Shown here: positions 9,481 to 63,567 of the stretch, one piece after another
Layout of the letters: each line of letters begins with the position of its first letter
How positions within the stretch are numbered: position 1 is the first letter of the stretch
DNA from: Chiloscyllium plagiosum
Taxonomy: Eukaryota
Direction of reading: 5' to 3'
Length of the DNA: 64,000 nucleotides
NCBI RefSeq assembly: GCF_004010195.1
Contig: NC_057718.1
Location: 43,780,280-43,844,279, forward strand
Program-made: the position numbers and the translations under genes
Notes under the pieces: model-generated
Seen by the model: the letters and a program-made list of their open reading frames with translations, nothing else
Databases searched by the model: none
What the model was told of the DNA's origin: nothing

Positions 9481-9683
9481 GTTTTGGTGAATGTATAGGA
9501 GACATTAAATTTGCAAACGACGTTGTTATACACTTGGCGGCTGCATCCACTAATGTGTCATTGTCAATCTGGATGGATGCTTATCATCTGACAGGATTGG
9601 TAACTGCAAAGAAAATAACTTCATTGTTGTATACACCAGGAAGGAACATGTATATGATAACGGTTTGCATCCATATTTTACTG
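9481..9683 (+). pseudogene. USH2A: USH2A exon relic (about human exon 28), frameshifted, donor lost
   Basis: Acceptor ttccaag at 9474-9480. Reads GFGECIGDIKFANDVVIHLAAASTN, then a 1-nt loss near 9555, then VIVNLDGCLSSDRIGNCKENNFIVVYTRKEHVYDNGLHPY (human GFGGCMKDVKF..VRVNLDGCLSTDSAVNCRGNDSILVY). No GT at the expected end; the 3' boundary is approximate. Confidence 0.9.
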
Positions 9684-9758
9684 AACCTTTTCACACTAAT
9701 TTTTCATACAGATTTTTCAGTACTAACTTCCAACATATAATATGTAACATGCTATTCT

Positions 9759-9835
9759 TATGAACAGAGTTATTGCAACAAATGATTAAGGCTTAATATC
9801 GGGTCTTTTGGAGCGAGGGCATGCAACATAAGAAG
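9759..9835 (+). pseudogene. USH2A: USH2A exon relic (about human exon 29) with two in-frame stops
   Basis: RVIATND*GLISGLLERGHAT*E aligns without gaps to human RVIASHEGGSVYSDWSRGRTTGA. TAA at 9787 and 9829; phase-1 donor GTAAAT at 9836; acceptor not recognisable. Confidence 0.8.
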
Positions 9836-9971
9836 GTAAATTATGACTTTTTAACCTCTTCATAATCTTGAAAAATCTATTTCAAAAGATTGGTGAGCAG
9901 TTAAGAAAAAAAGTGCTTTCCCTTAAATGATTGTTTCAACAACTAAACACTAAATATACACCATTAATTTG

Positions 9972-10188
9972 CAAGTCCAAAGATGTGCAGGAATAGGTGG
10001 ATTTGCCATGCTAAATTGCCCATGGTGTCCAGGAATGTGCAGGCTAGATGGATTAGCTATGGAAAATGAGGGGTTACAGAGATAGGGTAGAAGGGAGCTG
10101 GAACCGATGCTTTTTGGCGGGTCAGTGTAGACTCTATGGGCCGAATGGCCTGCTTCCACACTGCAGGGATTCTGTGATGATTCTATGA
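9972..10188 (+). mobile_element. HE1/V-type SINE, 3' part
   Basis: AGTCCAAAGATGTGCAGG..GCCATGCTAAATTGCCC..GGGCCGAATGGCCTGCTTCCACACTG with a (GATTCTAT)-like tail. Confidence 0.8.
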
Positions 10189-11619
10189 ATCCTGAAATGA
10201 TCAATCCTTTATTTTTAAACGGGGTGTTAACATCTTTGTTCCAATTTTAGAAATTTCAGAAACAACTGAAAACTTGAGATTCATTGCTGGCAAAGTTACA
10301 CTGGTTGGTTGTAGGTATTTAATAATATGTTTCAATAGGATAAAATTTCCCAAACATCCATTCGGCTATTTCTATTAGAAGCATTAGTGCTATCACTGAG
10401 CAAAGTTAGCAAACATATTTCTGAAACATAAGTAGCTACAAATGTCTTTGAAATAGGTTGTTGGCTTGTGTGTTGGTTCTCTGCATGTCATCAAAGGAAA
10501 ACTGGCTTCATTCTTGGTTAAGGTAAAGAGCACATTTTACAAATTTAACAGTTAATGGAAATATCGTCAATGTGATTTCCTGTACTGGCTTTGAATGCTT
10601 AAGGAGGTTTGGTAGCAATTTTCCAGATTTTTATTCTTTTTTTACCTTTGTTTTTTTTTTCTTTCTGTTTTCAGGGGATTAAATGGGAGTTTGAAAGTGT
10701 CTAAGCATCAATGCTTCAGGCAACATTAACGTGGAACAGGCTTGGTGGATCAGCTGATCTTTTCTCCGCTTGCTATTTGGAGTATATGTTTAAGAAAGAA
10801 AAATCAGAAGGGGGAGTAACTTGGTTAGGAAAATATGCTTTCACCTGGAGACAGGCTAAAACTCACTGCTTGAAAGGGTAGCAGAAACCTTTGACACCTT
10901 GAAAAGGATGTATATTTGCATTTGAAGTCCCATAATGCCAATGATACAAACCACATGCTGGATAGCGGGATTAGGTTGCATATTCAAGTTGTCAATGGGC
11001 ACAGACACAATGGGCAATGTGGCCATCATTTTGTGCCAGGAACATTTCTACCTTTTTAAACACTCTAAATATCTGAAGAGGGATATGTCCAAGATAGTGA
11101 CGTAGGGAAATACCTTCTTAAAATAGTTAACATGAACTCAATGGGTTGAATAGTTGCCTTCCACATTGCAACAAATCTACAATTTTTGTACATTTGTTTG
11201 AGTTGATTACAAACCTCAAACCTCTACTTACTGATTATACCAATGTTGGAATCAGCATTCATATACTCAATTAGAATCTGTCTGGTCTAAAATCCGTGAA
11301 CGTGCCACTTTTAGAAAACCTTAATGTCATGTTAAAGTAAGTAAGAATTGAGTTTGTATTGTGCCACTCACAATTTAAGTATGTCCCAATATACTTTAAA
11401 ATTCACAATTCACCAAGGTTTCTTCAAAAACACCTTCCAAACCCATAATGTCTACAATGTAAAAGGACAATGGATACTGATGCGTGGGAGCACCGTCCGT
11501 GTGACGTATGATCCTGACCTGAATATATATCACCCATTCCTTCGTTGCCATTTGGACAAGATCCTGAAATTATCTATCATCATTCACCATGTGGACCACA
11601 GGGCAGATGCTTAATTTTG

Positions 11620-11932
11620 TGGGAGAAGTTAGAAATAGGGATCGTTGTTTAAAAATAAGGGTTTGTGCATTTCAGATGGAAATGAGAAGCTTTTTTGCCC
11701 TCACACAGTCATGAGCCTTTGGAACTCTCTTCATTAAAATGGTTGAAACAGGGTCTTTGAATATTTTCAGCCGGGTTAGATATATTATTGGTAAGCAAAG
11801 GAGTGAAAGGTAGTGAGGGTGTAGGTGGGAGAGTAGTGTAATCTGACTCAGCCAGGATATATTTAATGGTGGAGCAGGTTTGAGAGTCTTTGCAGCCTCA
11901 TCCTGCTCCTGATTTGTATGTTCATATGTATG
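11620..11932 (+). mobile_element. CR1-clade LINE 3' end
   Basis: KIRVCAFQMEMRSFF..LWNSL C-terminal motif, 3' hairpin and (TATG)-like tail. Confidence 0.65.
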
Positions 11933-12039
11933 TACAGTCATTCAAAATGCAGCTCACCAGCCCCTTCTCAAGGGCTTTTGGGAAGGGGTAGTAAGTGCTG
12001 ATCTTGTTAGTGACAACGATATCCCAAGAATTAAATTTA

Positions 12040-12360
12040 AAAGTTTGCAGAGAGCAAAGTCTCACAAATTGTCATGAAGTAAATGACCAGAAGGTTTTTT
12101 TATGTGTAATATTGATTGGGAGGTGCATCAATGCTGGCCAAACATTCCCCCGCCTTTCTTCAAAAGGTAGTGTGGGATTTCTACATCCTTATAGTAGACA
12201 AGTATTAACATCTCATGTGAAAAATTGTAGTCTTTGATTATGTTCCCTCAGTATCACAATGCCCATGCCAGCTTTTATTATGTGCTCATGTGTCACAATC
12301 AAGACTTAAAATGATAACCTTTTGATTTAAAGGCAAGTGCGCTATGACTCAGTGAAGGCC
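12040..12360 (-). mobile_element. Old SINE, possibly Deu-domain; similar relics near 8870-9170, 61375-61600 and 62600-62800
   Basis: Shared degenerate blocks (CTTCTTCAAA..GGGATTT..CATC; CCCTCAGTA..) recur at these places. Family name is from memory. Confidence 0.4.
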
Positions 12361-12669
12361 ATCGGCCTGTAAATGAAATCTATGCCCCTTTTTTTCCATC
12401 TTATATTCAGACAACATAATTGTTCTTACTTTGTATGATTACAATGTTAGTAACTTTTCAGCATTATATTAAGCCTATCAGCATTGTTAAAATGTGGTTT
12501 GGCTATGAATTGTGTATTTGCTCTGTTTTGAAGCTCAGAAAATGTGGAACTACTGACTTTCAATGATACCAGCCCCCAGAATTGGCTTAATTGATTTGTC
12601 AGCATTGATTATTTGCTAACATGATAAATCTGTGTCAGATTGTGATGAACTGTCTGTGTTCTATCTATA

Positions 12670-12833
12670 GAGACAAAAAAAAAAACTGCAGATGCTGGAA
12701 TCCAACGTAGATTCACAGGAGGCTGGAAGAACACAGTAAGCCAGACAGCATTAGGAGATGGAGAAATGTTGACTTCTCCACCTCCTGATGCTGTCTGCCT
12801 TGCTGTGTTCTTCCAGCCTCCTGCCTGTCTACC
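12670..12833. mobile_element. Penelope-like terminal hairpin insertion with 16-bp TSD
   Basis: Inverted arms CAGGAGGCTGGAAGAACACAG and CTGTGTTCTTCCAGCCTCCTG; CTGTG(T/G)TCTATCTATA at 12654-12669 and 12834-12849. Confidence 0.75.
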
Positions 12834-13646
12834 CTGTGGTCTATCTATAAGCTTTTGTTTCAACAGGATCCCATACTCAAACTGGTACAAACTTGGTCTC
12901 ACATACAGTGTCTGCATTCTTCATCTCACCATGGTGCATTCAATGTAATTTGCAAGCTCATTGTTATTAGAGCAATATTGTCACAACCTGCAATTGTCTT
13001 TATGGCAATATAGTTTACACTATGAAAGAATATTGCATTGAGATGCAGTTGGACAAACTACTCAACGCTTTCAGGATTGCCGAAATTAACTTGTTTGCTT
13101 CCAAACTGATTAACAGACTGAATAACTAATCTCCTGCAAACTAAATACTGACTAGTTTTTCCCTTTCAATCCAAACAATTACTTGGAACATCTCAAGATA
13201 GAAAGGACCCAGTTGCTCCTGATAACTGTTGAGGAGAAATTGTTAAATTATGGCAGAAAAATGTTGCTGAGAAGAAGTCTGTACCTTCACTGAATGAGAA
13301 TTTGGGATAACTAGAACCTTCTCCCACAAAGATGAGATGACACTAATGGAGATGCATCACCCAATTAAAATGCTATAGTACATGCAGTGGGGATCTGACA
13401 GCAACCTGAGGATGGTAGATAATGAAGCAGGTTTCAACGAACCCTCCCCAAAGCCACAGGACAGGGCAAGTTGACCACCCTTGTAACTGCTGCCAGCACA
13501 ATAAAGTATAACTGTCTCTGAAGTAAACACAAAACCCTCCAAGGTTCTGGTCAGCAATATTAGGCTGAGCCCTGCTGCTCAGTTTACCAAATGACAGAAA
13601 GGCCCAGAGATCACTACAGAATCCTAGAATACATGCAACTATAAGC

Positions 13647-14125
13647 TCAAAAGATATAGGAGCAGAATGTGGCTATTCAGCCTATCGAGTCTGCTCCGTA
13701 TTTGATTATTGCTGATATGTTTCTCACCCCCATTATCCTGCTTTCTCCCCATAACCCTCCATCCCTTTACCATTCAAAAATCAATCTATCTCTATCTTAA
13801 ATACAGTCAATAACTTGGCTTCCTTAGCTCTCTGTATCAATGAGTTCCACAGAATAACCACTCTCTCGCCAAAGAATTCCCTCCTCATCTCAGTTCTCAA
13901 GGGTAGTCCCCTCACTCTGAGGCTGCATCTTCAGATCCTAGTCTCTCCTACTAGTGAAGACATCTTGTCTACATCTACCCTCGGCTTCTCGTGTTCTGTA
14001 CGTTTCAATCAGATACCACCGCCCCCCCCCCCCACCCCACCCCATCCTTCTCAACTCCATCAAGGACAGACCCAGAGACCTCAGCTACTCCTCATAATGC
14101 AAGTCCTTTATCCCCAGGATCATTC
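13647..14125 (-). mobile_element. CR1-clade LINE 3' end
   Basis: Minus strand LRVRGLPLRTEMRREF..RVVILWNSL plus the typical 3' UTR. Confidence 0.75.
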
Positions 14126-15141
14126 TTCTAAAAAGCCAGCATTACCCCAGAAATAAACCTAATAAAGGAATCCAAATTAGATTGTCTGACTCAGGGATTG
14201 TGAAAACAGCTGTGGAATACTTTACAGTTTCTCTCCATAAACTGTCAGGAACATTTAAAAAGGAAAATCACCATATGAAGCACTCCTTAGTAACATTTTT
14301 TTTTATCAACACCTCATGAATCTGGGATTGTTTCTAAACCTAAATTGCATTGAGGTCTCTGTGCTTATTGCCATGCCTAGACTGTGAATTTTGTGGTCCA
14401 TCTCTGAAAATGATCAATTCAACAAGATACAGCTTTAAAACATTAAGTTAAGGGATGGAAATGGAAACTGAGATTCCATTAAATAACTATAGTTGTATGA
14501 TCTCTGTGAATGAGAGAATGAATGAATATTTCTTTACCACTTTTTTCCTTCTTATCAGAACAAATGTTGAAAAGAAATGAACAGTGTTCATTTATTCCCC
14601 CAAAGGTGATGTTGCAAATGGATTAAAAAACATATTTAGTACATATGTATATACATCAAGCACATTCAACAACTCAACAAAGATTGCTGTTGTAATCAGA
14701 AACCTTCCAGAGCTTCTCAAACATTAAAGAAAGCTAGATAATCAATGCCTCATCTACCTCCTGATTGAACTGGAATTAAAATATTGTGTTATAAACTGCA
14801 CAGAGATAAAGAATGAAACATTATAGGGATCTGAAAGATTTGGGCTATGGGGAGATTGATGGCAGAATTGGTTGAGAAGTCTGTCAAAGCTTATCTTAAC
14901 ATTAAGAGCATCTTGCTCCATTTTTAATGCATCTAACAAGTGACGTAGCAAGGCAGCAGCAAGTTGGCAATTAAGGGAAATTATTGCTCATTAAAGGCAA
15001 TGTTAATGACTAGATTGCCTCATTAATATCCAAATTCCAAATGTACCAAACAAGCCAATTATTGAGAAATCCTAACATGGAATCAGAACAAGGAGCTACA
15101 GACTTTAGTTTGCCACTTGCTCCAAAGGACTTCCGTGGACT

Positions 15142-15552
15142 CAGAGTCATACAGCACAGAAATTGACCTTCAGTCAAATCAGTCCATGCTGAACATAATC
15201 CCAAAGTAAACTAGTCCCACCTGCCTGCTCCTGACCCATAGCCTTCTAAACCTTTTCTGTTCATGTACTTATCCAAACATCTTTTAAATGTTGTAATTGT
15301 ACGCACATCCACCACTTCCTCAGGAAGTTCATACGACATACAAACCAATCCCCCTGTGAAAAATTTGCCCTCATGTCTTTTTTAAATCTCCCTCCTCTCG
15401 ACTTAAAGATGTGCCCCCTCATCTCGAAATCTCCCAATCTAGGGAAGAGACAACTTACCCCTCTATCTATACACCTCATTATTGTATAAACTTCTATAAG
15501 ATCTCCTCTCAGCCTCCTATGCTCCAGTGAAAGAAGTCTCAGTCTATCTATG
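15142..15552 (-). mobile_element. CR1-clade LINE 3' end
   Basis: LSLEHRRLRGDLIEVYTIMR..RGHIFK and a (CTCTGA/CTCTAT)-type tail. Confidence 0.88.
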
Positions 15553-15589
15553 TTGCTAAGGACCAAGGTTCTAAGGTAGTGAGGAAGCA

Positions 15590-16070
15590 GCGCAGAGACC
15601 ATTCAGTTTACTGATATGAGAGATTGGAGTGGGTGACAGTACTTGAGACAAAATGTTGCAGGTAGTACGGAGAGCGGTAGAGCATGAGGTTTGGTGGGAG
15701 GTGGGTGCAGGAACAGACAAAGGGTGAGTATGAGGTAGTTGAAAGAACACTGTGGCACTTATTCTGGCAGAGTGGTAAAGTTCATCAATATTCTTACCAC
15801 ATTCCTGGTCATTCCCCCAGACCATTGAGACAGCATAATCCAGGTTGGAGACTTCAAAGCATGTTGCAGGGTGTGGCCTTCTTTATCAGTCCTCTGGGAA
15901 GGGGACTCATCTCCTTTACTACTCTCTTGACCAGAACCTCCATGTCCCTGGTGGAGAATCATGCTGCCAAGTTGCCTTTCTCAGAGCTCTTCACAAAAAT
16001 CCCGTACTTAGCAGGGCAGCTTCAGAATGCCAAAAGCTGCCAGTGCTCATCTGGGTGCACAGCATCTTTT
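15590..16070 (-). mobile_element. PIF/Harbinger-type Myb/SANT gene relic
   Basis: Minus strand FSTRDMEVLVKRV..NDQECGKNIDELYHSAR resembles the Myb/SANT motif FS..LE.LV..QCRKK.NDL. The following non-coding block recurs near 31330-31440 and 54180-54300. Confidence 0.55.
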
Positions 16071-16334
16071 TAACATTGCAAGGCCATTTGGGCTCCTGAT
16101 CTTTCACTGGATATCCTTTGAGTAGCGTATTGTCCTGGGATTGGTTAGTGCGCAGATGGGTTGGGAATTAGTGACAGGTGCTATAGCAATGGCATGGCTA
16201 GTCCATGAGGAGTATTTGGTCAGGAACATCAAGAAGTTTTGCATGGCTTTGTGGTGGAAATCCCTCCAAAACTTTGATGCACTTAGCTAAACAGATATTG
16301 TTGGATTCAGCTCAAAGTTTTGCAGAGATGGTAC

Positions 16335-16578
16335 CGACAGTGGGAATGTTACTGGACTAGCAATTCAGAACCCAATGCTAATATTCTGGGGATGTGGATT
16401 TGACCCACACCATGATAGCTGGTGGACATTTGAATTCCTTAAACATCTTCCCGGCACTAGCCTAGATGTGGTTGATTCTTGGTTGCCCTGAGCAAGCCCC
16501 ATGGTTGAAGGACAATTTGGGATGGACAATGTATACTAGTTTAGCCAGGGATGCCCATATTCCAAAAATAAATTTTAA
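16335..16578 (+). mobile_element. tRNA-derived SINE whose tail matches the 3' end of the LINE at 19415; partial reverse copy near 49895-50025
   Basis: CAGTGGGAATGTTACTGGACTAG head and TAGCCAGGGATGCCCATATTCC tail. Confidence 0.55.
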
Positions 16579-17589
16579 ATATAAGGTAATAAGTTGAGAA
16601 AAGTGAAATGGAAAGTGTTTTCACGTGTATTAGATGAATGGCCAGTTAGCCTGCCTCTCTGTAGTTAGGGAGAAAATGATTAAACTCCTTTCTTCCGTGA
16701 TTTGTGTGGCACGCTGTAATAGAAGCAGCAACAAATGGTCTGTGTACCATTTTGCACCACAGGCTGAATATTGCAGTTCTCTCCTTCTTGTGTACTTTAA
16801 AATTTAAAACTATTCTTTGAGAAAATTTAGTCACATTAAGGCTTATCAGAAAAATACTCAAATATATTTTAAGTCTTTCTGTTGTGTCATGCAAGTGCAT
16901 TTAACCTCTCTGGACACGACTCTGGATTCCATTTTAAAAATTTCCAATATGGGTATTAAGTATTGAATTCACAGGCTGCTTTGACCCCAATTACTGCTGC
17001 TTTCATCATTGAGGTGGGAAGCCACTATGAATATTTAGTTTTATAACTTGATATAAAGGGGATAAATATATGTAAAAGAAAATCTTTTCAAATTTGCTGA
17101 CAACTGCTGCACAAGAAGAAAATCTGCTTTTGCAATTTCCACCTGGTGCAGCAGGCAAGTCAGCCATAAAGCACCTGAACGTGGCAGATTTACTGCAGGA
17201 TTGGAGGGAGAGAAGTCTATTTGGTCACCATGTTATCACCCTTGGCAATAAATTTGGAAGTATGATAACATAATTTTGCCTAATGGAAAATATCTCAACA
17301 CCTGGAAGTCAAATGAGGTGAACTGGAGAATGGCTGCAAGTTGTTCGTCCTCTGTGTAAACATCCTTTACATGCAGTCCTTCCAGCAGAAAATGGCTCAG
17401 AAACAGATATAAATCAAATAATCTAAATTATTAACTTCAATATATTATTTGTGATAAAGAGGACATGCATAATGAATAAAAAACAAGTAACAAAGGAAGA
17501 TTCTATTTTCCGTAGTATTAAGCATTAGGTGTGCAAAATAAAATATATTTCTAAAGATTATAAAAACAGAAGTTGTGGGGAAATAAGTT

Positions 17590-17982
17590 GTACATTACAG
17601 AAACAGACCCTTCAGTCCAACTCATCCATGTTGACCAGATATCATATATTAATGTAGTCCCACTTACCAGCATTTGGCCCATATCCCTCCAAAGCCTTCC
17701 TATTCACATATCCATCCAGGTGCCTTTTAAATGTTGTAATTGTACCAGCCTCCACCACTTTGCCTGCAGTTCATTCCATGTACGCACCACCCTCTGCATG
17801 AAAAGATTGCCTCTTAAATCCCTTTTATATCTTTCCCTTCTCACCATAAACCTATGCCCTCTAGTTTTGCATTCCCCTATCCTGGGAAAAACACCTTGGC
17901 TATTCACCCTATTCATGCCCTTCAAGGTTTTATAAATCTCCATAAGGTCACCCCTCAGCCTCCGACACTCCAGGGAAAATAG
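17590..17982 (-). mobile_element. CR1-clade LINE 3' end
   Basis: RLRGDLMEIYKTLKGMNRV..TRGHRF..RVVRTWNEL. Confidence 0.9.
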
Positions 17983-18224
17983 AATACTTGACGTGTCAGG
18001 CAGCGTTTATGGTGAGAGAATCAAAGGTTGACCAACTTTCAGCAGAACTGGAAACACCTTGAGATATAAGAGGGTTCAAGCATCCATACACAGAAGGGAG
18101 AGAAAAAGACAAAGGAGAAGGTTTATGTTTGGTGAAGACAGGAAGGATTAAAAGAATAAGTGAATGCTGATTCAAGGATGAAAATTATTTTTGAGGAGTT
18201 TTAAATGGCAATGGGAGAAACTTT

Positions 18225-26225: not shown

Positions 26226-28799
26226 CAATAAATATTAATTTTCCATTACAGCCTCCAACATTTCTGCCCACCATGACTCTACCCATAATGCCCTCCCCAA
26301 AGAACGCCATCCCACTCTCACTCTCCTGAGCTCAGGAATCCAACTGCATTCCCTGGTGAAGATATCAAGTACTATTGGCAGTAGCCAGTAATCGTGGTGA
26401 CACACCCAGCAAGAAAGAGCTGACAATCTCTGATTGGCTGGTAGCTCAGGGGCTGGAGAAAGTTTCCACTTTCTTGCTCCTAAATTCCAAGTAATCTAAC
26501 TCCACTCAGGCATCTAATTCAGTCAGGTTTGCCCCTTAGCAGCCAAATCAGTTTCCCGTGGGTTCTTTGAAAAATGGGCTGAACCCTTGCCAGTTATATC
26601 AAATTCCACCCCATAATTTTCTAAAGCAAATAGAAATGAAAGTTCATGAAGATCTGATTGTAAAACTGAATATTAAATTCTTGCTGTATTCCTTCAGACA
26701 AGGAATAAATCTGATTCCAGCTGTGGCACAGATTATTTCATATAAAAAGTTGGTAATGCATACTATTAATCAGACCCGGAGTGATCTCTGCAATAGTTTT
26801 AATTGCCTAAGTGAATCAGAGATGAAATTTTCAGCTTTTGTCCTTTAGTTGATTGTGTGTTTTAGTTGGTTTCTCACCTCTTCAATCTTATATGGTTTCC
26901 ACGTCGAGTGAAATGAGATATGAAAGAGTTGTAATATACAGGTATGACATTTATGAGGGACAAGGTGGGTGGGCTGTGTCTTTATTTTTCTTATATTTTG
27001 CAAACACTGTGGATTGCTTAAGCTATTTTATGCAGCTAGATTTTCAACAAAGCTGAATGGGATGGATGATAAAATAGACAGGCTTATTTTCAAAAGTGTT
27101 AGATGATTTCATGGTGTTAGAAGTTAATGTGTAGTAACTGCTTAAAAGTCTCCCTTTATGTGACTAACTTAACAATACACCTCTTTACTTGGACAGTTTT
27201 ATTTTACATTGTTAACATAATTTTATAATTGAAAAGATATATAACACTTTTTTTGTGTTTGCTAATGGTGAACAAAGTATATGTGAGGGGAAACTGGCTT
27301 TTGGAGTGGGAGAAACTAAACTGTTTTCATGGAGTGACTTGTGAGTCCACATATATTTCTGTTGGGCTAATCATCCATCATCCTGCCAGAAAGCTTCTTG
27401 GGTGTTGCCACTGTGTCCCTTGTGTAGTCATTTGTAATAAAATAATAACCATCTGGTATTCCTGTAATAAGCAATTAGTTACATTTGAAAGCAAATAATT
27501 TTTAGGCAACTGAATAAAGTATAACTGATTTTAAATGTTATTTATAATTTGGTTTAACCTAAACCAATGTGTTAATGTGCACAATAGTCTGATGTACATT
27601 TTCAAACTCGACTTACATCAGACAGGCCTTAGTTTTTGCTTCATTTTCAATGTTGTTATGACTGGAAATTATTTTGTTCAACTGGCTGATTAGTACCACT
27701 GTCTGTAATATACATCAACAAAGATGTGCCTTGATTTTGGATTATTAAACAATAAATTAAATTATGAAACATTAATGTCGTATTGAATTTGCAAAGCTCA
27801 ACATTGAGAAAAACAATAATTGTAGACATTATGTGATATGTTTACATATTATTAGGCACACTATATAGTAGATTTTTCTGTTATTGGTTCATTATTGTGC
27901 CTATCAAAATCAATATGTGGTCTACTGGTTGTAAATATGACCTACACCCTTCCTAATTGTGAATGTCAGCCAAATTTATTCAGGCTAGCTTTTCTTTTGC
28001 ATGTACCGCTCAGTCAAATCTATTTCTTGACTTTAACTTAGGTCAATTTCCTTCTCATTACCACTCTTTCTCTTCTCAATGGGTTGTCACGTTCAGAAAA
28101 CAGTCGAAAGTTTTCACACTTTTTCAAGGCTTACAAAGTCTTTGCTGCTTAGTGCAATCAGAAACAGACATATTTGATGCAAGATGTGTATAAAGTTTTC
28201 TTTGAGGGAAGAAACCACTTTAGGAAGGTATCTCACCTGGAGGCCTGGTTTGCAGCTGATTAAATCCATCATGAGACTCCAGGGAGAAACTAGTGTTATA
28301 ATGGAGAAAGACCATTGAAATTTGAAGCTGTGACCACAGCAGTCTGAAGGGACCACCTTAACCATTACTCTACCTGTCTTCCGTCAGATAGATTTTGAAG
28401 TTTATGACTGAACAGTGATTGTTCTAATCTTCACAGTTCCATTTGGGATTATGAAATGTGACAGTCACTCCCAGTTGTAAACCCAGTGTATCATTTTATT
28501 ATAAATTTCAAAGTATTTTGAAGAAGGATTATTGAAGTTAGTATGCTGAAAATCTGCATAGCTTTTTTTGTGAATTCATAGCAATACTTTTAAATGTTTA
28601 ATTATATGGAACTTTTCATGGAAGTCTGAAAAATAATCCTGTGTTCTCTGTTTTCATCTTTGCTACAAAGTTACAATGTTTAAATAATAAAGACTTACAA
28701 AATTTTTGCATTCAATTTACTGCAGCCTCTAATGCTGACAGATGTGTGGGCTTCATGTGGACTTCTGGTCTTTATCCAGCTCTTTTTTTTTCTTTCCAG

Positions 28800-28985
28800 T
28801 TCCACAAAATGTGTCAACTCCCTCAAGAATTCACAGTATAAATGGTTACAGAGTTAAGGTGAGCTGGGACGAGCCAGCTGAGGTCAGAGGTGTAATTGAG
28901 AAGTACATTTTGAAAGCACACAATGAGGACAGTCCCAGCACGCCCCTCATCAGAGCCAACTTTACTGACACCCGTTCCCTGGCAG
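28800..28985 (+). pseudogene. USH2A: USH2A exon (about human exon 30), FN3 domain, open frame with intact splice sites
   Basis: Polypyrimidine tract ending ttccag, 186 nt open reading (VPQNVSTPSRIHSINGYRVKVSWDEPAEVRGVIEKYILKAHNEDSPSTPLIRANFTDTRSLA), donor GTAAGC. Confidence 0.95.
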
Positions 28986-29369
28986 GTAAGCTCCACAGAC
29001 TGATGAAATAACCAAGAAAATTATTGTGTAATGAATGTAATGCAGATTGTGCCTTAATTGAATTAAAGGCTGGGTGATACAGATACAGACACCTGTCCAA
29101 TTACAGTCAGGATAAGGTGTTTACTGTTGCTGTATGGGGCTACATGAAGATGACAAGAATCATTCCTCCCACAGATTAACATAATGAAGAGGAACAGATT
29201 ATAATAGTTGCTGGCCAGTCTCTGATGTGACTGCACAAAATGTAGAAGTGTATTGGTAGCACATTTCTGCAGGCTGCATTCTTAGTATTTTAATTTGCTT
29301 GTTTTACGCTGTTACTTCTGTATAATAAGGTAATTTAAACTTGCCAATTCTTGTTTGTTCCTTTTATAG

Positions 29370-29479
29370 AAAACTTGACTGATCTGATTCCTTTTACAAA
29401 TTATAGAATAGCACCGAGTGTCTGCACATTGGCTGGCTTTTCAGACAGTGCACATGGTAGCTTACAACACCAGAAGAAG
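29370..29479 (+). pseudogene. USH2A: USH2A exon relic (about human exon 31), frameshifted
   Basis: Acceptor ttttatag. Reads NLTDLIPFTNYRIAPSVCTLAGFSDSAHG, shifts frame, then LTTPEE. Length is 110 nt, not a multiple of 3 for a phase 1-1 exon. The conserved GC Cys has become Phe; donor is GTAGAG. Confidence 0.9.
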
Positions 29480-29920
29480 GTAGAGCATTTAAAGAGGTTT
29501 TAACTTCTACATTTCTATGATGAATAATAAAATAGGTGAACAACTAAAGAATTGCAAAGCCATTTACTGGAAAACTCCAACCTAATTTGATGACAAAGTA
29601 CATTGCCAGACCATAATTGTTCCGTTTTTGGTGAGAAAATGAATCAAACTCGATACCGTTTAATGACATGCATCTTTAATAGCTGTAATGCAGATTAATG
29701 GGCTTTTTAATTGCTGTTACATTGTTCATGCAAGAGCCTCGTCGTTAATATGAGGCATCTGAAAGATTAATGAAAGCTTCTTCATTTTACTACAGCAGAG
29801 AAGTAAATCCAGGGACAGTCTGACTAAAAAGAATTGATTGTATGGCAAAGTATGAAATTGGAAATCAGATGCTTGATTTCCATGAGGTTCTTAAACCGAC
29901 AAAGTATTTTTTTTCCTAAG

Positions 29921-29938
29921 CTCCTTAGGATGTTCAAG
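29921..29938 (+). pseudogene. USH2A: USH2A: 5' 18 nt of the exon-32 equivalent (candidate micro-exon) with a nonsense codon
   Basis: Acceptor ttttttttcctaag, then (G)CT CCT TAG GAT GTT CAA G = AP*DVQ versus human APQEVQ. Homology stops abruptly. Confidence 0.75.
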
Positions 29939-30548
29939 TTTACCACATTATTTAAGCCATTTTATTTAACCTTCAAGTTCATTATTTGGAATGCCTCTGC
30001 TGCTTACTAGGCAATAGGTTTCGATTTTGCCATGATGTCTAAACAGATCCTTGAATATGCTTCATATCCATGAAGACAGTGCAGACCACAACCTCAGCCT
30101 TATAAATTTCATTCAAAACTGCAAATGACTTCGAAATTTTAGTGCCGAGGAACAGATTCTTCTATAGCAACATATAATAGATTTACTTTGCAGTGCTGTG
30201 AAGAGCAATTACTATTTTTAATCTAATTTGCCTACTGTTCCTTGAATACCTAAGTGGAACCATGGCGTGAGTTTAACAAGAGATTAACACTGAATAAAAA
30301 CAATACCTCAGAATTAATTTTACTTTAAATGCGCAAAAAAATCATTTTAAAATCAATAGCATGAGTGATCAGCTATTTTTATATATGTGTCTATAATGAT
30401 ATTGGCAAGTAAAACACAAGTATTGTAGATTGTTATTATTGAACACCATCCTATATGAAGAGTAATGGTTATTTTTAATCAATTACTTATATAATTTAGT
30501 GTCATTTCTTGCCCCTCATCATTTTAACCAAACTACCCAGTCCATTAA

Positions 30549-39181: not shown

Positions 39182-40332
39182 GTAAGAGCTGACAGATGAT
39201 GAGGCTGAGTATCTTGCTCTAACACGGGAAACCTGGGTTGTCAGAAGGTACAACTAGTCAGAGACTGACAGCTTTAAGGTCCTAAAGTTTTTTGATCGAG
39301 GCCTACTTCCTGGAGTAGCCAGTAGTGAGAAGGTAATTTTTTTCATCTTCTTATAGGGTGGTGTAAGAAGGGAGTCTGGGGACTTTTGAACACAAGGGTA
39401 GGGTGAGCTATTAGAGGTCATTTCATCCACACCTCTGCTTTTCACCAGATGTGGGCAATTGGAGCAACCCAACCCCAACTGCCACCTGCAAGAACTCAGC
39501 AGGCAGGTTACCATGGTTTCTTAATTGCAAAACTAGCCATTTGTCTTGCTCATTGGGGAGGCAAGTGATCGGGAAGTAGGGGTGAGTTGCAGCCCTAAAA
39601 TGACCATGAATTAGCCACTTAAGGTTTTTATTTGCTGCTAAGTTATGAAAACTGCTCATTACCATGAGTGATTTGTTGGTGGGGAGAAACAAGATTCAGG
39701 TGTGTGTAAGAGCACGTCTCCATAAACAAGAGACAAAGTGTTTCATGGGCATTCATGACCAGCAGTGAATTGCAGAAATGCCCAAGAAGTGGGTAAGTTT
39801 CTCTCCAGGGCAAACCTGTTTAATTATTTCTCTTTTTTTCACCATGTCCAGGAAGGGGAAAATTGCACCTTGTGCAGAGTCTCCTGGTCCCCTGGGAATA
39901 GGTGACATCTTTCCTCCTCTGCATCTCCTATATTAAGTGGTGTTAAGATCAGAAAATCAGTGAAATCTCGGACCTGTTCTCTGTCATGTTGTGCCATTAT
40001 TATATTTTTCTCTGGTTGAATCAGTTGCAGAATTACTTCAGGAATCTGTTTATGCCATAGTGCACCTATCTTTAAAAGGTGCAGATTGGCTTTAAGCTGC
40101 GGAATGACTTTTAACTCGTGCTTGTCTCTGACATATTTTTCAACCTCTGATGATGCACATGCACACTTATCAGCCCATTTAGTACTGGCTGCTTGCTGGA
40201 ATCATTGAACATCAGCGTGAAGTGTACTGGAGTAACTGACATGTTAATCCTGCATTGCAATCTGCATGTCCATTTTTGAGTTCTTATTGAATTTTGCAGC
40301 CTATTTTGTCAAATGTTATTATTTTATTCTAG

Positions 40333-40476
40333 GTCCAACTGCTGTGCCTTTTCATACATTGTTACTGGTATCATAGCCTTTACCAAATCATGCAAATGCT
40401 ATTATCATCAATTATTCAATGTTCAAAGATGGCCAACTCATCTATAAAGGCAAAGAGCAAACATGCACTGTAACTA
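40333..40476 (+). pseudogene. USH2A: USH2A: remaining 144 nt of the exon-32 equivalent, Trp to stop, donor mutated
   Basis: Preceded by ttattattttattctag. Reads PTAVPFHTLLLVS*PLPNHANAIIINYSMFKDGQLIYKGKEQTCTVT versus human PVAKSLPSSLLLSWNPPKKANGIITQYCLYMDGRLIYSGSEENYIVT. TAG at 40374; donor reads ATAAGT instead of GTAAGT. Confidence 0.9.
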
Positions 40477-40852
40477 ATAAGTTTTGGGTTTTGTATTAGA
40501 CCCAATGAAGTAAAGTGCTTGATTCAAAAAGTACAATATTTTGTTCTTAATGAAACATTGGAAGTAAAAATGTCAGAAATATATTGAGTGCAAATGTGAG
40601 GAAGTAAAAAGTTATATTGCTATAATTTAATTGCATATGCAACATTTAAATTATCTACTAGAATGACTAGTTTGTTTTGACTTGTTGTTAGATGGCATTA
40701 TCACAGGCGATATATAAGAGTGAATTATTGTCATTTCATATATACACTGAATTAATTTAAAATTCAGAAAAGGTTGAATACATCCTTTATACACTGATTA
40801 AAATAAACTGACTTTGTGAAGTGCATTATTTTGGCTTTTGTGCTTCCATTTA

Positions 40853-49599: not shown

Positions 49600-49745
49600 A
49601 TGAAAAAAAAAGCTGTGTATGCTGGAAATTTGAAACAAAAACCAAAATTACTGGAAAATCACAGTAGATCTGACAGCATCTGTGGAGAACAATCAGTTGA
49701 CATTTTGGGTTCAGTGATCCTTCTTCAGAACTGTACTGAAGAACC
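49600..49745 (-). mobile_element. Penelope-like terminus with decayed hammerhead; similar termini at about 42215-42335, 56835-56970 and 60820-60940
   Basis: Minus strand CAGTT-CTGAAGA-A-GGATCACTGAACCC-AAAATGTC-AACTG, with a perfect stem I (CAGTT/AACTG). Confidence 0.65.
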
Positions 49746-56552: not shown

Positions 56553-57302
56553 CATCTTTGTATCCACATCTATCATACAAAAATAATGTGCTTGTTTGAC
56601 ATCATATAATAGCTACATCTTCTTTGGGCCAACAGCCTCTTCACATTAGGCTACCTCTGGTTTGTGTCTACCATACTTGGCCAAGCAGGTCCTGTCAATC
56701 CCATTCTAAAAGGAGTACAGTGACAGCAAACCTACCTTAGTAACCAGTCCTTCAGATAGCTCACTCAATATAAGGAACAGTCATGAGGATTCATCACAAA
56801 ACAATTACATCCAACTAAACAGCAGATATTTTCAATAAAACCAAGGACTGTGGATGCTGAAGATCTTGAATAAAATCAAAATTTGCTGGAGATATTCACT
56901 GGGTCTGGCTTTCTCTGTGGAGAGAGAGCAGAGTTAACATTTCAAGTCCAGTGACTTTTCTTTAGAATCCTATTCTCTATTATCTTTCAAAAGTTAAAGT
57001 TTCATAAAATCAGTATTTCCTTAATGATCAATTAAAATTTTAACTTAAATTACATGCTTAGGTCTAATGATGAGACTTGAATTTTATGAATATCTAACTC
57101 AGAAATAAAAGTGCTTGTCTATGCTCCACACTGAGCCAAGTTGACATTTAAGAAAAGGAAGAGAATATAAACATACCATAGAATATAAACTATGATTTAA
57201 ATCACAAGCTTCTGCATCAATACTCCCCTTTATACATAATTTGAAAGCATTTTCTTTTGTATGTTGAGTCTTTCTTGAATATTTTATATGAATGATCAGT
57301 GT

Positions 57303-58150
57303 GTTACGTCTAGGTGAGGAGGGGTAATTTGGCTCTTTTTAATACCTCTCAGCTGGCGATAACAAAGATTCTGAATTATTTTTAGTGCACAGCTATACCG
57401 TACATAATTTAAAATATAAAGGAGCCAATAGCAAGGTATTTTTGAGTGGAAGAAGAATTTTATTATTTACTAACCATGAAAAAGTTATAAAGCACAATAT
57501 CAAACACACAAGCACAGGTATAAAGTTTAAAAAGAGTAGTATATCCAAAAGGAAGATCAATTATATACATTTTGCAAGTCCTTCCAGCCCTTGAGGTGTT
57601 GGGTTTTACCTGAGAGCACGTTTGTTTAATTACTGACTTGTACCCTCAGTAGTGACAAAATTTGTAGGTATTTTTGAGATCTCAATGAATTGCTGTTTCT
57701 TTGATTGACTCTATTCGTTAGGTGCAATGTTTGAGAGGCTGGGATGAACATGGAGAGAGAAAGGAAAACCTTATATTTTTATTGTTACAATTCCATGATT
57801 CTTCTCTCTTTGCCCAAAATCTGTTGCCTGAACTATAGTTCAGTTTTATATTCCCGTGCTTAGCTTTACTGTTTCTTTCTATCAAGCTGGATAAACTTTG
57901 ATGCCTATATATGGTACTTGTAGATAGATGTGAATTAAACAGGAGATGGAGATCTGAGTTTCAATGATTCTTAATGATCAAGTTGCTTTCACCACAGACT
58001 TATTCTTGTTTATTAATAGATGCCTGATCTTACCTCAACCTGGTTAGGTGACTACTATGATCATCTTAAGTTAGTGTTCTTCCCTTTTTATAATAGAAAA
58101 TTACCCAAGAACAGTCTGAAAGCATGGAAGTCAGATTGTGGAACTCTAAA
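57303..58150 (-). mobile_element. Possible solo Gypsy LTR
   Basis: Starts TGTTACG..AGGTGAG..GGGG, with TTTATT near 57459; right boundary uncertain. Confidence 0.35.
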
Positions 58151-58380
58151 ATTAATAGTTCATTTTTACCACCAGTGTAATAATGGATACAACTGGAGAG
58201 AGTGACTGGTTCAAAAATTGTTTTTGAAATAATCCATATAAACAGAAAATAAAATTAAAAAGTAAAGGTAAACATAATTGTACTGTGACTTGTTTCCATC
58301 CAATAGAGTAAGAAATGAGGCAGTTTGACAATTTATTTTCTACTTTACAAACTGTTAATTTCATGTCATATTTTGTTCTA

Positions 58381-58575
58381 CAGGTAGACAATCCTTTATC
58401 TGAAATTCCGAAATCTGAATTTTTTTTCCTGAAGTTTTTTTTTCCATTAACAATGTTGCGTGGCGTGCATACAGCTAAAGCAACTCCACACCTACTCAAC
58501 CCACGTCACTCAAATGTGATGTAGTGGCGTGACCCAGCACTGACAGGCATTAATTCTGTCTCAGTGCTCATAGTA
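58381..58575 (+). mobile_element. Tc1/mariner (Tigger-like) end
   Basis: TA followed by CAGGTAGACAATCCTTTATCTGAAATTCCGAAATCTGAA; no partner TIR found. Confidence 0.4.
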
Positions 58576-58579
58576 ATCA

Positions 58580-58857
58580 CAGCTCATAAGCCCTTGGTGA
58601 TAGGGGATCTCAGGCTAAACCAGCTCATAGGCCGTCAGTGGTAGGGGATCTCAGGCTAAACCAGCTCATAGGCTGTCAGTGATAGGGGATCTCAGGCTAA
58701 ACCAGCTCATAGGCCGTCAGTAATAGGGGATCTCAGGCTAAACCAGCTCATAGGCCGTCAGTGATAGGGGATCTCAGGCTAAACCAGCTCATAGGCCCTC
58801 GGTAATAGGGGATCTCAAGCTAAACCAGCTATAAGGCCCTCGGTGATAGGAGATCTT
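58580..58857. repeat. 41-bp minisatellite, about 6.8 copies
   Basis: Unit CAGCTCATAGGCCGTCAGTGATAGGGGATCTCAGGCTAAAC starts at 58580, 58621, 58662, 58703, 58744, 58785 and 58826. Confidence 0.95.
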
Positions 58858-59554
58858 GCCCTCGAGGTACCTGCCAATTTGATTGGTTGGTGTTTCTAGA
58901 ACTCATGGCTGTGTCACAGCTGTGGGAGCTGCTGAGGTTGCAAGAAGGAGTATGACAAAGATGGATGGCTACAGCAGACAGGTAAGCTCCTGGCTTTTAG
59001 GGTGGAGAAGGATTTGAGGCCTCATGGATTGATGAGAGTGAGGTTGAAGATTGGGTTTTGGAGGACAGACAGTGAGGTATGTGGAAGCGGACCATCTAGA
59101 AATTAGTGCCAATGTGCACAAGGCACCATGTGAGTGATATAACTCTCTCCAAATCTGTTTAGTGTGCCACCTTGCACCAGCCTGTCCATACTAACCATAC
59201 TATGATGCTGGTAGGGTACTATCTAGATCAATCAATATGACAATAAGCTCAATTGATCCTTAACTGGTTATTTAAGTGTGCCAGGCAATTTGCTGATTGC
59301 AGTACCTATCTATCCATTCTATTCTGCTGGGCAGCTCAATGGTGGTTTTGCCACCCTTTGTTCTGCATGCGCTCCCCACCCTGCACATTCCCAGTGGAGG
59401 AAGTTGTAAAATCCAGGAGACGACACTTAATATACAATATATTAAAATGAATAATGAAGACACATTATAATACAATATGATTGATAGTTATCTACACTTT
59501 GTTAGTTGCTAAATCACACATGGTACATTGAAAATGGATGTTCTTCTCTTACAG

Positions 59555-59671
59555 GGTTAGCTGGCTATTCCCCACATCAGCTCGTGCTTGAAGCATGCAC
59601 AGTTGTTGGCTATGCAAACAGTTTGCAGATCACTGTGTTTATATCCTGGACTCAAGAAGCATATATGTGCA
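59555..59671 (+). pseudogene. USH2A: USH2A exon relic (about human exon 33) with an internal frameshifting deletion
   Basis: Acceptor ttcttctcttacag. Reads LAGYSPHQLVLEACTVVGYANSLQITVF, lacks about 15 codons (2 nt remain), then ILDSRSIYVQ. Phase-2 donor GTATGT. Confidence 0.9.
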
Positions 59672-61227
59672 GTATGTAGCCTTCACAAAACACCATTTAT
59701 GTTCTGTATACTATAAAATTCTCCAAAGGGATCAATCAGAAAGCGTTTGTGACAGAAAATTTAATTTAACTGATTAAATGCATCAAAGTGATTAGTTTAG
59801 TGATACTGTGAACCGTTGATTATCATTTGCTGTTCAGAAGCCAACTTAATACTATTATTAGGTTTAAAAAATCAAGTTAGCTACCTACAATTTGAAGGAA
59901 TATTGATGGCTGTGTTGATATTTAGAAAGAAAATTTATTTCATCTCCTCTGAAATTACTGGATACTGTTACATTTATATGGGAAAGAAATAATCTGTTTC
60001 AGGATTTAAATAAAAATCTATTTAATTTTTAGCCTTTTTTTAACAACGTCACATGACGACTAAAGCCTGCGGTTAGCTAATGTTTGAAATTGCTAAGTCA
60101 AAACAGTCGATCGCTAAGCTTACCCAAATATATCTCGGGGTTACACTTGCCATAAATCTGTCGCATCGTAAAATTCTTTCTGAAAATCATATAGGATTTT
60201 TATTATGGATTATAGGATTTAATAGAATTCTATAGCAGAAGCTGTAAATTATATGGAATTTTTACAATTGATAATAAGATTTAACAGGATTATATAGTAC
60301 ACCCTATAAATTATGGGCAATTTTTAGAATTGCAGAGTTTTTCCTATTTTTCTTAATTGAATAACATACCTCTATTTTCTGCAAATAATGGAATCTGTTG
60401 ATGAATTAGCCAAGCAGGCCTTGCAATTATTTTTCCAAAAATATGTATTTGTCACCCAGGCTATTTGGACACAAGTTATTCTATGTTTCAACTCCAATTC
60501 TTTTATATACATGAAAAGTATCTGACTTTTCCATTTCATTCTACTTTCCCTAAGAATATATTGATATCATTGTGAGTCACTCTGGAGAAAGCCAAAACTT
60601 AACTTCTCCTTCTAAAAGTTGAATGCCTTCAGTAAATTCATTTTATAATGATAAGTTTATAATTAGATTTAATTGCATATTTTCCATATAAGAGTTTGGG
60701 TTGTTTCACATTTTACCTTTTTCCTTCCAATTTGAAAAGTGAATGGTCTAATTTGTGTCTGTAATTTGTTGTTGATTGTTGTTTTAAGTTGCTACAACCA
60801 CAATTTCAAAAATAAATTGGAGATGCCAGTGTTAGACTGGGGTGTACAAAGTTAAAAATCACACCACACTAGGTTATAGTCCAACAGGTTTAATTGGAAG
60901 CACTAGCATTCGGAGTGCTGCTCCTTCATCCACAACCACCTTATTCTTATTCTTATTTTTATTTATATACCTCAACCTTCATTGCTTTACAGGAAGATCC
61001 AAGGAGTATTAAGACCAGGATACATTTATACCTAATGCAGATTGCTAACATTATTGTTCTATAGTTCTATTGTCTATTTTTTCATGTCATGATATAAAGA
61101 AGCATTTACTGTCAGTGAAATTTTTTTGATGAAGTTGATGATATCACCATCAGTTTGAATGCTACTTGCAAGTTGCTGTGATCACAATAATAATGGTGCA
61201 TTCATGCATTTCATATTGAGGTGTATT

Positions 61228-61349
61228 TTTCTTCGCTACATTGATGACTGTATCGGCGCTACCTCGTGCTCCTGCCTGACCTGCTGTGCTGTTCCAGCAA
61301 TAAAGTTTCAACTTTGATCTCCAGCATCTGCAGACCTCACTTTCTCCTC
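61228..61349 (+). mobile_element. Collapsed Penelope: RT core joined to the terminal repeat
   Basis: FLRYIDDCIGATSCS (61228-61272) is fused to TGCCTGACCTGCTG..CATCTGCAGACCTCACTTTCTCC; GTATT on both sides. Confidence 0.75.
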
Positions 61350-61862
61350 GTATTGCTCACAATCTCAATCATGAGGAGCATAAGGGTATAAACATACATT
61401 TGTCAATTGTCTGATATCCAAATAAAACTCACTTTTTGAGGAGGATCTCTCTGTGACTGAGGTGGCTCTAAGATACCATTCCTGATGAAGGAAATTCAGA
61501 ACCAAGTTGCTGTAATACATGTAATAACTGTACAGCTGGACCAGGAGGCTTTGGCAGTATTCCAACGTGCTATGCAAGGTTAAGCAACCTTGCTCACTAA
61601 TTTTCCAACACATAGGTGGACAAGTAGCAGAAAGTTAAACATTTTTATTGGTTAAACTTCTGAAGTATACTGCCATATACCTGAAATTCGTAAACACTAT
61701 CTCTCGTCCTGTGGTAGAAATGTACATTATATAAAAGAAAAATAGAAATTCCACATGTGTGGATTGCTCAATAGCTTGATTTGAATACTTTTGAGCATGG
61801 TGATATGTTATTGTATAAATCAAATACCTAGTTAACAAAAATAATTTATGGGGGTAATAGCT

Positions 61863-62403
61863 TAGAGTCATAGAGATGTACAGCATGAAACAAACCCTTC
61901 AGTCCAACTCTTCCATGCCAACCAAATATCTCAACCCAATCCAGTCCCACCTGCCAGAACCCAGTCCATATCCCTCCAAACCCTTCCTATTCATATACCC
62001 ATCCAAATACCTTTTAAATGTTGCAATTGTACCAGCCTCCACCACTTCCTCTGGCAGTTCATTCCATACATGTACCACCCTCTGCATGAAAATGTTGCAT
62101 CACGTTAGCCAACCTCCAGTCTTCTGGCACCTCACCTGTGACTATCGATGATACAAATATCTCAGCAAGAGGCCCAGCAATCACTTCTCTAGCTTCCCAC
62201 AGAGTTCTTGGGTACACCTGATCAGGTCCTGGGGATTTATCCACCTTTAACCGTTTCAAGACATCCAACGCTTCTTCCTCTGTAATCTGGACATTTTGCA
62301 AGATGTCACCATCTATTTCCCTACAGTCTATATCTTGCATATCCTTTTCCACAGTAAATTCTGATGCAAAATATTCATTTAGTATCTGCCCCATTTTCTG
62401 TGA
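61863..62403 (-). mobile_element. CR1 LINE with large internal deletion
   Basis: ILNEYFASEFT..KSPGPDQVYPRTLWE..VPEDWRLANV is joined near 62099 directly to the ORF2 C-terminus and 3' UTR. Confidence 0.9.
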
Positions 62404-63402
62404 CTACTGAAGTCACAGTTACATCACAGCTTACCCTGAGACGCTCATCTAGTTAGTCATCATACCCAAATCTAAACATTTCTCCCCTAAGTACTTTTGC
62501 AGTTTCTATCATGATTAACTAAAACTATTTTCTTAACATTACTAACTGGAGCATTTAACTAAAAGTATTCCCTTTAAGATTGATCAATTGTACTTCCAAG
62601 TCAACCATCTCCCATCAAAATCTATTATCCATAGATTCAAGCACTGCAGAGATCTCACAATTCTCCCTGATGTGGTCATCTTGTGCGATGCAGATGGTGT
62701 TAGCCTGAAGGTTGACCTGGAATTGTATATATTGTAAATATGACACTGGCTCAAGTCATGCTCCAGCATGATCAGATCTTAAGTTCTGGATCTTTGGCCT
62801 AAAGTGGAGAGTGTAGTGTGTATTCCAGGTGTGGAAAAGTTACTGCCACAATATGCTGATCCAGAGGTGTTAGGAAAGGTTTGGTATTGTTGGTAAAGGC
62901 AAAAGCTGAGACTTGAGTCATGGCCTTCCTAGCACTCAGGCTCAGTGATTTGCATCTTGTGCACCACTCTCCTGGATCCTGCAGACATTTGGTTCATTTG
63001 TTCCACTCCATCCACTTCAAATTGAATTGTATCCAAAATATGTGATCTGACCTCTTCTTAAATATATTAATGAGTTCACTGCCTGTTGTCAGTGAAAACG
63101 CTAGCTCCTAAATCAAGGTTCACTTGAAAATCCGAACCAGTGGACCTCTTGTGAACAGTCTTGTGATTTATTTTTAATTATCATCTCATTACCATGTCAT
63201 TTCCATTTAACGATGAGTTGATGGGGGGGTGAAACTGGAAAGTAGTTTCTAAAATCTTTAGTAATTGGATATAAATAGGTTAAATGAGCTCATTAGAATT
63301 CTATATTTAAGCTAGATGAACAAAGATGTTTTGCCAACTATAATGAATTGTCGATATACCTTTTTTGAGTCTGAGTAAATTATATTTCTCTGGCAAATTT
63401 AG

Positions 63403-63567
63403 GTGGAATGAACCTGCAGAAATTAATGGTCATCTTGAACTTTACTTTCTATATGTTTGGGCCAATGAAGAGAATTTAAGGAACATAAATGTAATAGCTC
63501 CCAACTAGTTGTGAATTTCACTGTGGGATAATTTGAAACTGAGACAAAATACTTTATAAAACTTTCT
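63403..63567 (+). pseudogene. USH2A: USH2A exon relic (about human exon 34) with frameshift, stop and degenerate donor
   Basis: Acceptor aatttag. Reads WNEPAEINGHLELYFLYVWANEENLRNIN, about 7 nt lost near 63491, then NSSQLVVNFTVG*FETETKYFIKLS. TAA at 63529; followed by GCATCT rather than GT. Confidence 0.88.

Follow-up and report, generated by a model that had tools for sequence, protein, structure and literature searches.

A decayed USH2A (usherin) locus, very probably a unitary pseudogene, in a galeomorph shark

Loss of USH2A, the gene encoding usherin, causes Usher syndrome type 2A in people, and the gene is thought to be essential for long-term vision and normal hearing. Here we describe the USH2A locus of a galeomorph shark, Chiloscyllium plagiosum, beginning with a 64-kb stretch of its genome (the window; C9:43,780,280-43,844,279, from an assembly that totals 3.56 Gb in 101,977 contigs) that holds seven consecutive exons of the gene on the plus strand. 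These exons correspond approximately to residues 1880-2241 of the usherin of the basking shark (Cetorhinus), and six of the seven are broken. On this evidence, and on that from the remainder of the gene, USH2A in this shark is very probably a unitary pseudogene at its native, intron-containing locus.

Usherin exons and their lesions in the window

Three-frame translation at the sites flagged in an earlier, sequence-only reading of the window revealed fibronectin-III-like pieces interrupted by stops. Reference usherins from Callorhinchus (P0002), Pristiophorus (P0007), Alligator (P0003), and Cetorhinus (P0047) were aligned to the window by tblastn, and the lesions were then read codon by codon, by coordinate, beside an alignment of five cartilaginous-fish usherins. 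The Callorhinchus, Pristiophorus, and alligator proteins gave one ordered plus-strand series (9477-9727, 28799-29005, 29372-29455, 40326-40475, 59545-59681, and 63401-63570), equivalent to Callorhinchus residues 1421-1781. The exons are laid out as follows.

9481..9835, plus strand: pseudo-exon A, in which the second laminin-G domain ends and an FN3 domain begins, matching Cetorhinus usherin at about residues 1880-1975 (tblastn, five-reference alignment, codon read)
28800..28985, plus strand: exon B, first half of an FN3 domain, the sole intact exon of the seven; acceptor ...ttccag, donor gtaagc
29370..29479, plus strand: pseudo-exon C, second half of the FN3 domain begun in exon B (reference alignment, codon read)
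29921..29937, plus strand: micro-exon of 17 nt, reading AP*DVQ where the references have APKDVQ or APEDVQ; acceptor AG at 29919-29920, donor GT at 29938-29939
40332..40476, plus strand: pseudo-exon D, first half of the FN3 domain that follows (reference alignment, codon read)
59555..59671, plus strand: pseudo-exon E (reference alignment, codon read)
63403..63571, plus strand: pseudo-exon F (reference alignment, codon read)

The identity of the gene is apparent from exon B, which is 84% identical to the corresponding segment in Pristiophorus and 88% identical to that in Cetorhinus; its Pfam fn3 match (E 3e-4, 21.4 bits) falls under the curated cut-off of 25. A protein search with this exon returned sturgeon usherin as its sole match (73% identity, E 5e-29; 1 protein, 8 candidates), and a second search with the window exons returned 45 proteins at E <= 1e-10; their sources call nearly all of them usherin or USH2A, and the Callorhinchus and Pristiophorus proteins are among them.

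The remaining six exons are disabled in different ways. Exon A changes frame between 9554 and 9557 and carries TAA codons at 9787 and 9829, both within sequence that aligns to coding residues, while its donor GT is present at 9836. Approximately 57-60 extra bases in the interval 9686-9765 contain a second, diverged copy of a ...Y-R-x-x-A-S/T-N... segment and are likely an internal tandem duplication; that they represent a very short, old intron is an ambiguous second reading. A short intron at 9684-9765, with the dead donor first proposed near 9683, is unsupported, because the F-T-E coding similarity runs on in frame past 9683. Exon C has TTT at 29438 in place of the conserved Cys of the C-T-x-x-G-C motif (Cys to Phe), a frame change of about 4 nt at 29450-29452, and, in the frame that aligns after this change, a TAG at 29458 (TW*LTTPEE versus TWKLTTPEE), a stop additional to those listed earlier. 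The micro-exon is interrupted by TAG at 29926. Exon D has TAG at 40374 in place of a conserved Trp, an Asn-Gly to Asn-Ala change at 40395-40400, and AT instead of a donor GT at 40477-40478. Exon E has TAT at 59611 in place of a conserved Cys (Cys to Tyr); near 59640 it lacks about 46 nt, a deletion that costs it about 15 codons and breaks the frame, while its donor GT at 59672 is retained. Exon F combines a deletion of about 7 nt near 63493 with TAA at 63529 in place of Gln and CT instead of a donor GT at 63572-63573.

The series of seven usherin exons in order, six of them broken, that the sequence-only reading had described was thus borne out by both tblastn and the codon read. Its five stops (9787, 9829, 29926, 40374, and 63529) are all present, and the two C-T-x-x-G-C cysteines that it saw changed to Phe and Tyr are those at 29438 and 59611. 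The frameshifts it put near 9555, 29459, 59641, and 63491 are real and are placed here at 9554/9557, about 29451, about 59640, and about 63493. Two of its three dead donors, near 40477 and near 63568, stand; the third, near 9683, is the one not borne out above.

The intron 5' of exon A contains the remains of a decayed retroelement, recognized by Pfam on the window's plus strand as an integrase (2853-3731), a reverse transcriptase-RNase H region (4242-4586), and a reverse-transcriptase fragment (6492-7097).

Decay of the whole gene and its age

The genome was searched with three protein queries: sturgeon usherin, a C-terminal stretch of Callorhinchus usherin, and a middle stretch of Cetorhinus usherin. 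Matches of usherin grade on C9 made up 13 of 27, 17 of 21, and 16 of 26 of the respective results, a total of 46, all on the plus strand and in protein order. Their identity is 34-90% (mostly 50-90%), compared with a paralogue-like 24-52% on other contigs, where the matches, judged by this level of identity, are probably laminin-, netrin-, and FN3-type relatives. Stops fall within 33 of the 46 matches on C9 versus 3 of the 27 on other contigs, although some are due to intron read-through at match edges. With full-length Cetorhinus usherin (5221 amino acids) as query, tblastn yielded a chain of 60 colinear pieces on one strand of C9, running from residue 1 to residue 5221, covering 3645 of the 5221 residues, and spanning C9:43,412,977-44,395,559 (approximately 0.98 Mb). 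Against the whole assembly, the usherin queries give a single decayed, colinear locus on C9 and one further exon on the unplaced contig C96568, and no second copy was found.

Along the chain the domains keep their usherin order: laminin-type domains at the N-terminus, then the FN3 arrays, and lastly the transmembrane helix and the PDZ-binding C-terminus. Acceptor and donor sites are still visible at many exons across the 0.98 Mb. The 48 exon-like blocks contain 46 internal stops and 12 frameshift junctions between adjoining pieces; by automated count 29 blocks are broken and 19 are clean, and 3 of the 19 proved by eye to be broken just past the aligned piece. Frame-destroying lesions extend from the first coding exon as far as the last fibronectin domain. 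The first coding exon is interrupted as early as codon 12, cysteines are missing from the laminin-EGF exons, one of which contains three frame changes, conserved cysteines are likewise lost from FN3 motifs, and the largest exon (1248 nt), which lies outside the window, carries six stops and several deletions. Rescue by exon skipping can be ruled out, because at least 29 broken blocks are spread over the whole gene.

A short secreted and a long transmembrane isoform of USH2A are defined in a review of the gene (PMC8417766). The N-terminal exons common to the short isoform are also broken, and both isoforms are therefore disabled; as read from the exons, neither the short secreted nor the long transmembrane usherin would be made. 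The earlier proposal of a natural knockout of at least the long isoform accordingly holds and can be widened to the short one, with the qualification that the last three exons, discussed below, look undecayed.

The lesions of the largest exon were compared with contigs built from public sequencing reads over L028:950-2850. Among the matches listed, runs containing this exon came from organism A, which bears the same species label as the assembly (8 runs, two studies), organism B (7 runs, word share 0.20-0.34), and organism C (5 runs, about 0.20-0.21); no RNA run was among them. A contig of organism A that perhaps derives from the assembly's own source (X1) has no substitutions relative to the assembly and one 2-nt insertion. 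This insertion, AT at L028:1891, is missing from X5 and represents either a polymorphism or a small assembly error in the pseudo-exon. X5, from the other study of organism A, has 6 substitutions and no indel, and none of its substitutions falls in the seven stops of the stretch. The stops of the large exon are thus present in contigs from independent studies, and the lesions there are therefore real and occur in independent individuals. The contig of organism B (X9) differs by 34 substitutions over about 1330 nt (31 of these are listed) and lacks 1, 8, 2, and 8 nt at four places; six of the seven stops are unchanged, the altered one being TAG at 1618. In that of organism C (X15), 40 substitutions over about 1018 nt are accompanied by deletions of 1, 3, 1, 11, 1, and 1 nt. 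Lesions of the large exon are largely common to at least one related species. Pairwise differences in the exon are 0.026 (A-B) and 0.039 (A-C), the A-B substitutions are distributed 15/10/5 over codon positions 1/2/3 (30 listed in the exon), and the exon has drifted regardless of frame since organisms A, B, and C split. The intron before the large exon also contains a short interspersed repeat (L028:1173-1525; C9:44,294,854-44,295,206) that is extremely abundant: in each of the four runs, which come from three organisms, the contigs matching it reach summed word depths of millions.

Usherins are annotated in the following cartilaginous fishes.

Cetorhinus maximus: P0047, 5221 amino acids
Mustelus asterias: P0048, 5221 amino acids
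Scyliorhinus canicula: P0049, 5263 amino acids
Pristiophorus japonicus: P0007, 3417 amino acids
Callorhinchus milii: P0002, 4760 amino acids

Full-length protein (5221-5263 amino acids) is annotated in the first three of these sharks. Since other sharks and a chimaera have an annotated usherin, the loss is lineage-specific, and the description of a dead USH2A "in this elasmobranch" applies to the shark studied here and not to elasmobranchs at large, four other sharks having the gene annotated. No ray, skate, or carpet-shark usherin was present in the best 120 of 279 matches, which may reflect the content of the database or further losses.

The conceptual translation of the locus, written with X for each stop and a gap wherever the frame breaks, shares 68-70.5% identity over 3456 columns with the usherins of the four sharks, which are 83-88% identical to one another. 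A maximum-likelihood tree (LG+G4, quick search) places it as sister to Cetorhinus plus (Mustelus, Scyliorhinus), with Pristiophorus outside (Shimodaira-Hasegawa-like approximate likelihood ratio test, SH-aLRT, 99). Its terminal branch is 0.35, versus 0.05-0.07 in the sister species, and a three-point estimate for residues 1-5043 gives 0.25 versus 0.054 for Cetorhinus, so that the protein branch is about 4-5 times longer than in the intact sharks. Approximately unbiased (AU) tests rejected four other positions for the species: beside the two carcharhiniforms (p 0.004), beside Cetorhinus (p 0.003), beside Pristiophorus (p 2e-6), and external to the four sharks (p 5e-7), a batoid origin of the genome being rejected at p 5e-7 as well; the groups tested were named after the tree had been seen, and the long branch could pull the species downward. 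As judged from this tree, the loss would lie on a galeomorph branch outside Lamniformes plus Carcharhiniformes.

A rough age can be attached to the loss. The aligned DNA holds 49 stops in 3622 codons; given that 4.4% of single-base changes make a stop, the loss of constraint on the ectodomain dates back roughly 0.10 neutral substitutions per site. The A-B and A-C differences are several times smaller, and constraint was accordingly lost, on this rough scale, several times further back than organisms B and C split off. The spread of lesions, the branch length, and the single copy together support the long neutral decay at a native, intron-containing locus that was proposed from the window.

Alternative readings and the conserved 3' end

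Several observations weigh against regarding the locus as the remains of the only USH2A gene, dead throughout. By automated count 19 of the 48 blocks carry no lesion, 1576 of the 5221 reference residues were not recovered, and the middle of the gene was sampled only around the protein matches. The window's own lesions are those of the assembly, the comparison with reads having covered one large exon outside it; for organism C only 8 of the 40 substitutions are listed, so that sharing of stops there is not visible; and the dating is rough, having been made without nucleotide sequences from intact species. The assembly, with its many contigs, is fragmented enough to leave room for an intact copy that escaped assembly, and the genome searches used a stricter first look and can miss matches. 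Lastly, the last three exons look constrained, and "completely dead" may be too strong a description of the 3' end.

The room left by a fragmented assembly and by strict searches is what a decayed duplicate, with an intact USH2A elsewhere and perhaps unassembled, would need, as is the finding that the exon for Pristiophorus residues 339-408 is absent from the C9 series and lies instead at C96568:17,790-17,999, on the minus strand, at the end of an unplaced contig of 18 kb. This exon, however, is as diverged as the rest of the gene (61% identity), is decayed like it, and fills the gap in the C9 series, and it probably marks an assembly gap rather than a second copy. An intact copy would match very strongly, given that the large exon scores 442 bits even in its decayed state, yet none was seen in three protein and two DNA searches of the assembly; the DNA of the large exon and that of exon B each match only themselves, and each of the four read runs yielded only one long contig over the large exon at >= 85% likeness. 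As to the surroundings, we take the expected order to be ESRRG - USH2A - KCTD3, with ESRRG upstream, and a two-exon nuclear-receptor DNA-binding domain, a candidate ESRRG, is found at C9:43,210,224-43,212,722, about 200 kb upstream of USH2A; on the KCTD3 side, no KCTD-type BTB (BTB_2) match was found near C9:44.4 Mb, at the 3' end of the gene. Having introns, the locus is not a retrocopy; with a nuclear-receptor gene about 200 kb upstream, it probably occupies the ancestral site, and we consider a duplicate very improbable. More improbable still, to the point of being negligible, is that mistakes of sequencing or assembly have made a functional gene look broken. Indels are typical of long-read error, and the 2-nt difference between X1 and the assembly at L028:1891 is of that kind, but most of the lesions are base substitutions to stops (46) or replacements of conserved Cys and Trp residues. 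Contigs from independent studies repeat all the stops of the large exon, a different species carries six of the seven, and amino-acid divergence is raised over the whole gene, which errors could not bring about.

The 3' end calls for separate treatment. The last three exons (Cetorhinus residues 5044-5221; C9:44,383,822-44,395,562; L030:1498-1728 and L032:1504-1725 and 2611-2700) begin with a short stub and go on to specify the transmembrane helix, the cytoplasmic tail, and the PDZ-binding ...TDTQL end. Their frames are open, their acceptors are good, the donors read gtaag and gtaat, and ...TDTQL is followed by the natural TAA stop. Of 180 aligned positions, 22 depart from Cetorhinus, compared with 13 in Mustelus and Scyliorhinus, an excess of divergence of 5% as against 18% in the rest of the gene (Poisson P about 1e-4 for <=22 when 45 are expected), and their three-point branch is 0.07 versus 0.048 for Cetorhinus, in place of the 0.25 versus 0.054 of residues 1-5043. 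The absence of any lesion from 180 codons has P of about 0.05 at the gene-wide density. No long open frame is present on the opposite strand of these exons. The acceptor of the transmembrane exon is preceded, at a distance of 7 codons, by an in-frame ATG.

These features would fit a gene that is dead as usherin but whose last three exons persist as a separate small coding unit, with an internal start, that engages scaffold partners of the USH2 complex, a reading that we hold only tentatively and at somewhat less than even weight. The exon just before the last three has a TAG right after ...TSDKS, and no long protein therefore reaches them. Caution is warranted, since the region was chosen after the data had been seen and the upstream ATG may be due to chance. 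The two exons just upstream, one of them that with the TAG, are also reduced in excess (three-point branch 0.144 versus 0.063), and things could look alike if mutation were slower in this region or if the 3' part had died later. Three readings of the 3' end thus stand side by side: a small surviving product, later death, and a locally low mutation rate. In its most specific form, in which the ectodomain of 5,000 residues has decayed while selection has kept the last three exons as a predicted mini-protein of about 180-190 residues docking onto whirlin- or PDZD7-type scaffolds, the first of these is rather doubtful; if it were true, the intracellular role of usherin would be separable in nature from its extracellular link role.

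Apart from this tail, the history that we propose for the pseudogene is a simple one. Selection on the ectodomain would have been lost long ago; point mutations, small deletions, and splice-site changes would then have accumulated independently, exon by exon; and the photoreceptor periciliary complex and the hair-bundle ankle-link region would now be built without full-length usherin.

Consequences and comparison with known systems

The extracellular partner of usherin, ADGRV1, may be intact. A cluster of eight Calx-beta matches and one EPTP match, presumably the signature of ADGRV1, occupies one strand of C2:47,484,767-47,751,745 (plus), and the locus is possibly intact because only one of the nine matches has an internal stop. 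A shark lineage long without full-length usherin would constitute a natural experiment, suggesting that neither the periciliary complex nor the hair bundle needs this protein for its maintenance. It invites a search for compensation, given that the ADGRV1-like locus looks open and that a small protein comprising the conserved tail of usherin may have survived; this transmembrane-tail module is the part most worth following up, with interest for Usher-syndrome and hair-cell biology. The locus also offers a dated, clade-level sensory gene loss within sharks, and a caution for annotation pipelines, which may silently drop or patch such a locus.

The sequence-only reading knew of no earlier description, and our literature searches found none of a shark USH2A pseudogene. 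The shark and ray genome and sensory papers listed do not mention USH2A in their main texts, "usherin" and "shark" occurred together as whole words only in a 2010 review of matrix evolution among the indexed texts, and the papers listed for USH2A and shark were clinical or made incidental mention. Lineage-specific loss of sensory genes is a known kind of event; the case of USH2A reported here appears to be new.

The closest comparison is with the annotated usherins of other cartilaginous fishes, to which the locus is alike in orthology, in exon order, and in the series of domains down to ...TDTQL, the best-kept exons being 84-94% identical. The usherin models of the other sharks differ in having open frames and the higher mutual identity given above, whereas here the frame is broken at least 58 times.

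This shark lineage is, to our knowledge, not known to be blind. Blind subterranean mammals offer a parallel in the natural relaxation of constraint on USH2A, which is among 208 genes with raised divergence in the Forward Genomics study of these animals (PMC4948712). Those mammals have degenerate eyes, and what the gene list of that study records is raised divergence, with no pseudogene described there; in the shark the gene is thoroughly disabled. In a cavefish, the changes given for USH2A in the corresponding account are two amino-acid replacements (PMC4698820).

Opsin losses in cartilaginous fishes, as treated in two accounts (PMC12361510; PMC11979771), are likewise lineage-specific losses of visual-system genes. 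They concern receptor genes, however, and go with spectral simplification, whereas USH2A is a structural and adhesion gene of photoreceptors and hair cells.

Engineered knockouts of Ush2a or ush2a in mouse, zebrafish, and rabbit, as summarized in the review cited above (PMC8417766), lack usherin from the periciliary membrane complex and the ankle-link region, the state that would hold in this shark. According to the same summary, the laboratory knockouts exhibit photoreceptor dysfunction or slow degeneration, with hearing defects in some lines; the zebrafish knockouts share the photoreceptor phenotype, and one line has an impaired startle response to sound (PMC8417766). Because the loss in the shark is fixed and ancient, it must there be tolerated or compensated.

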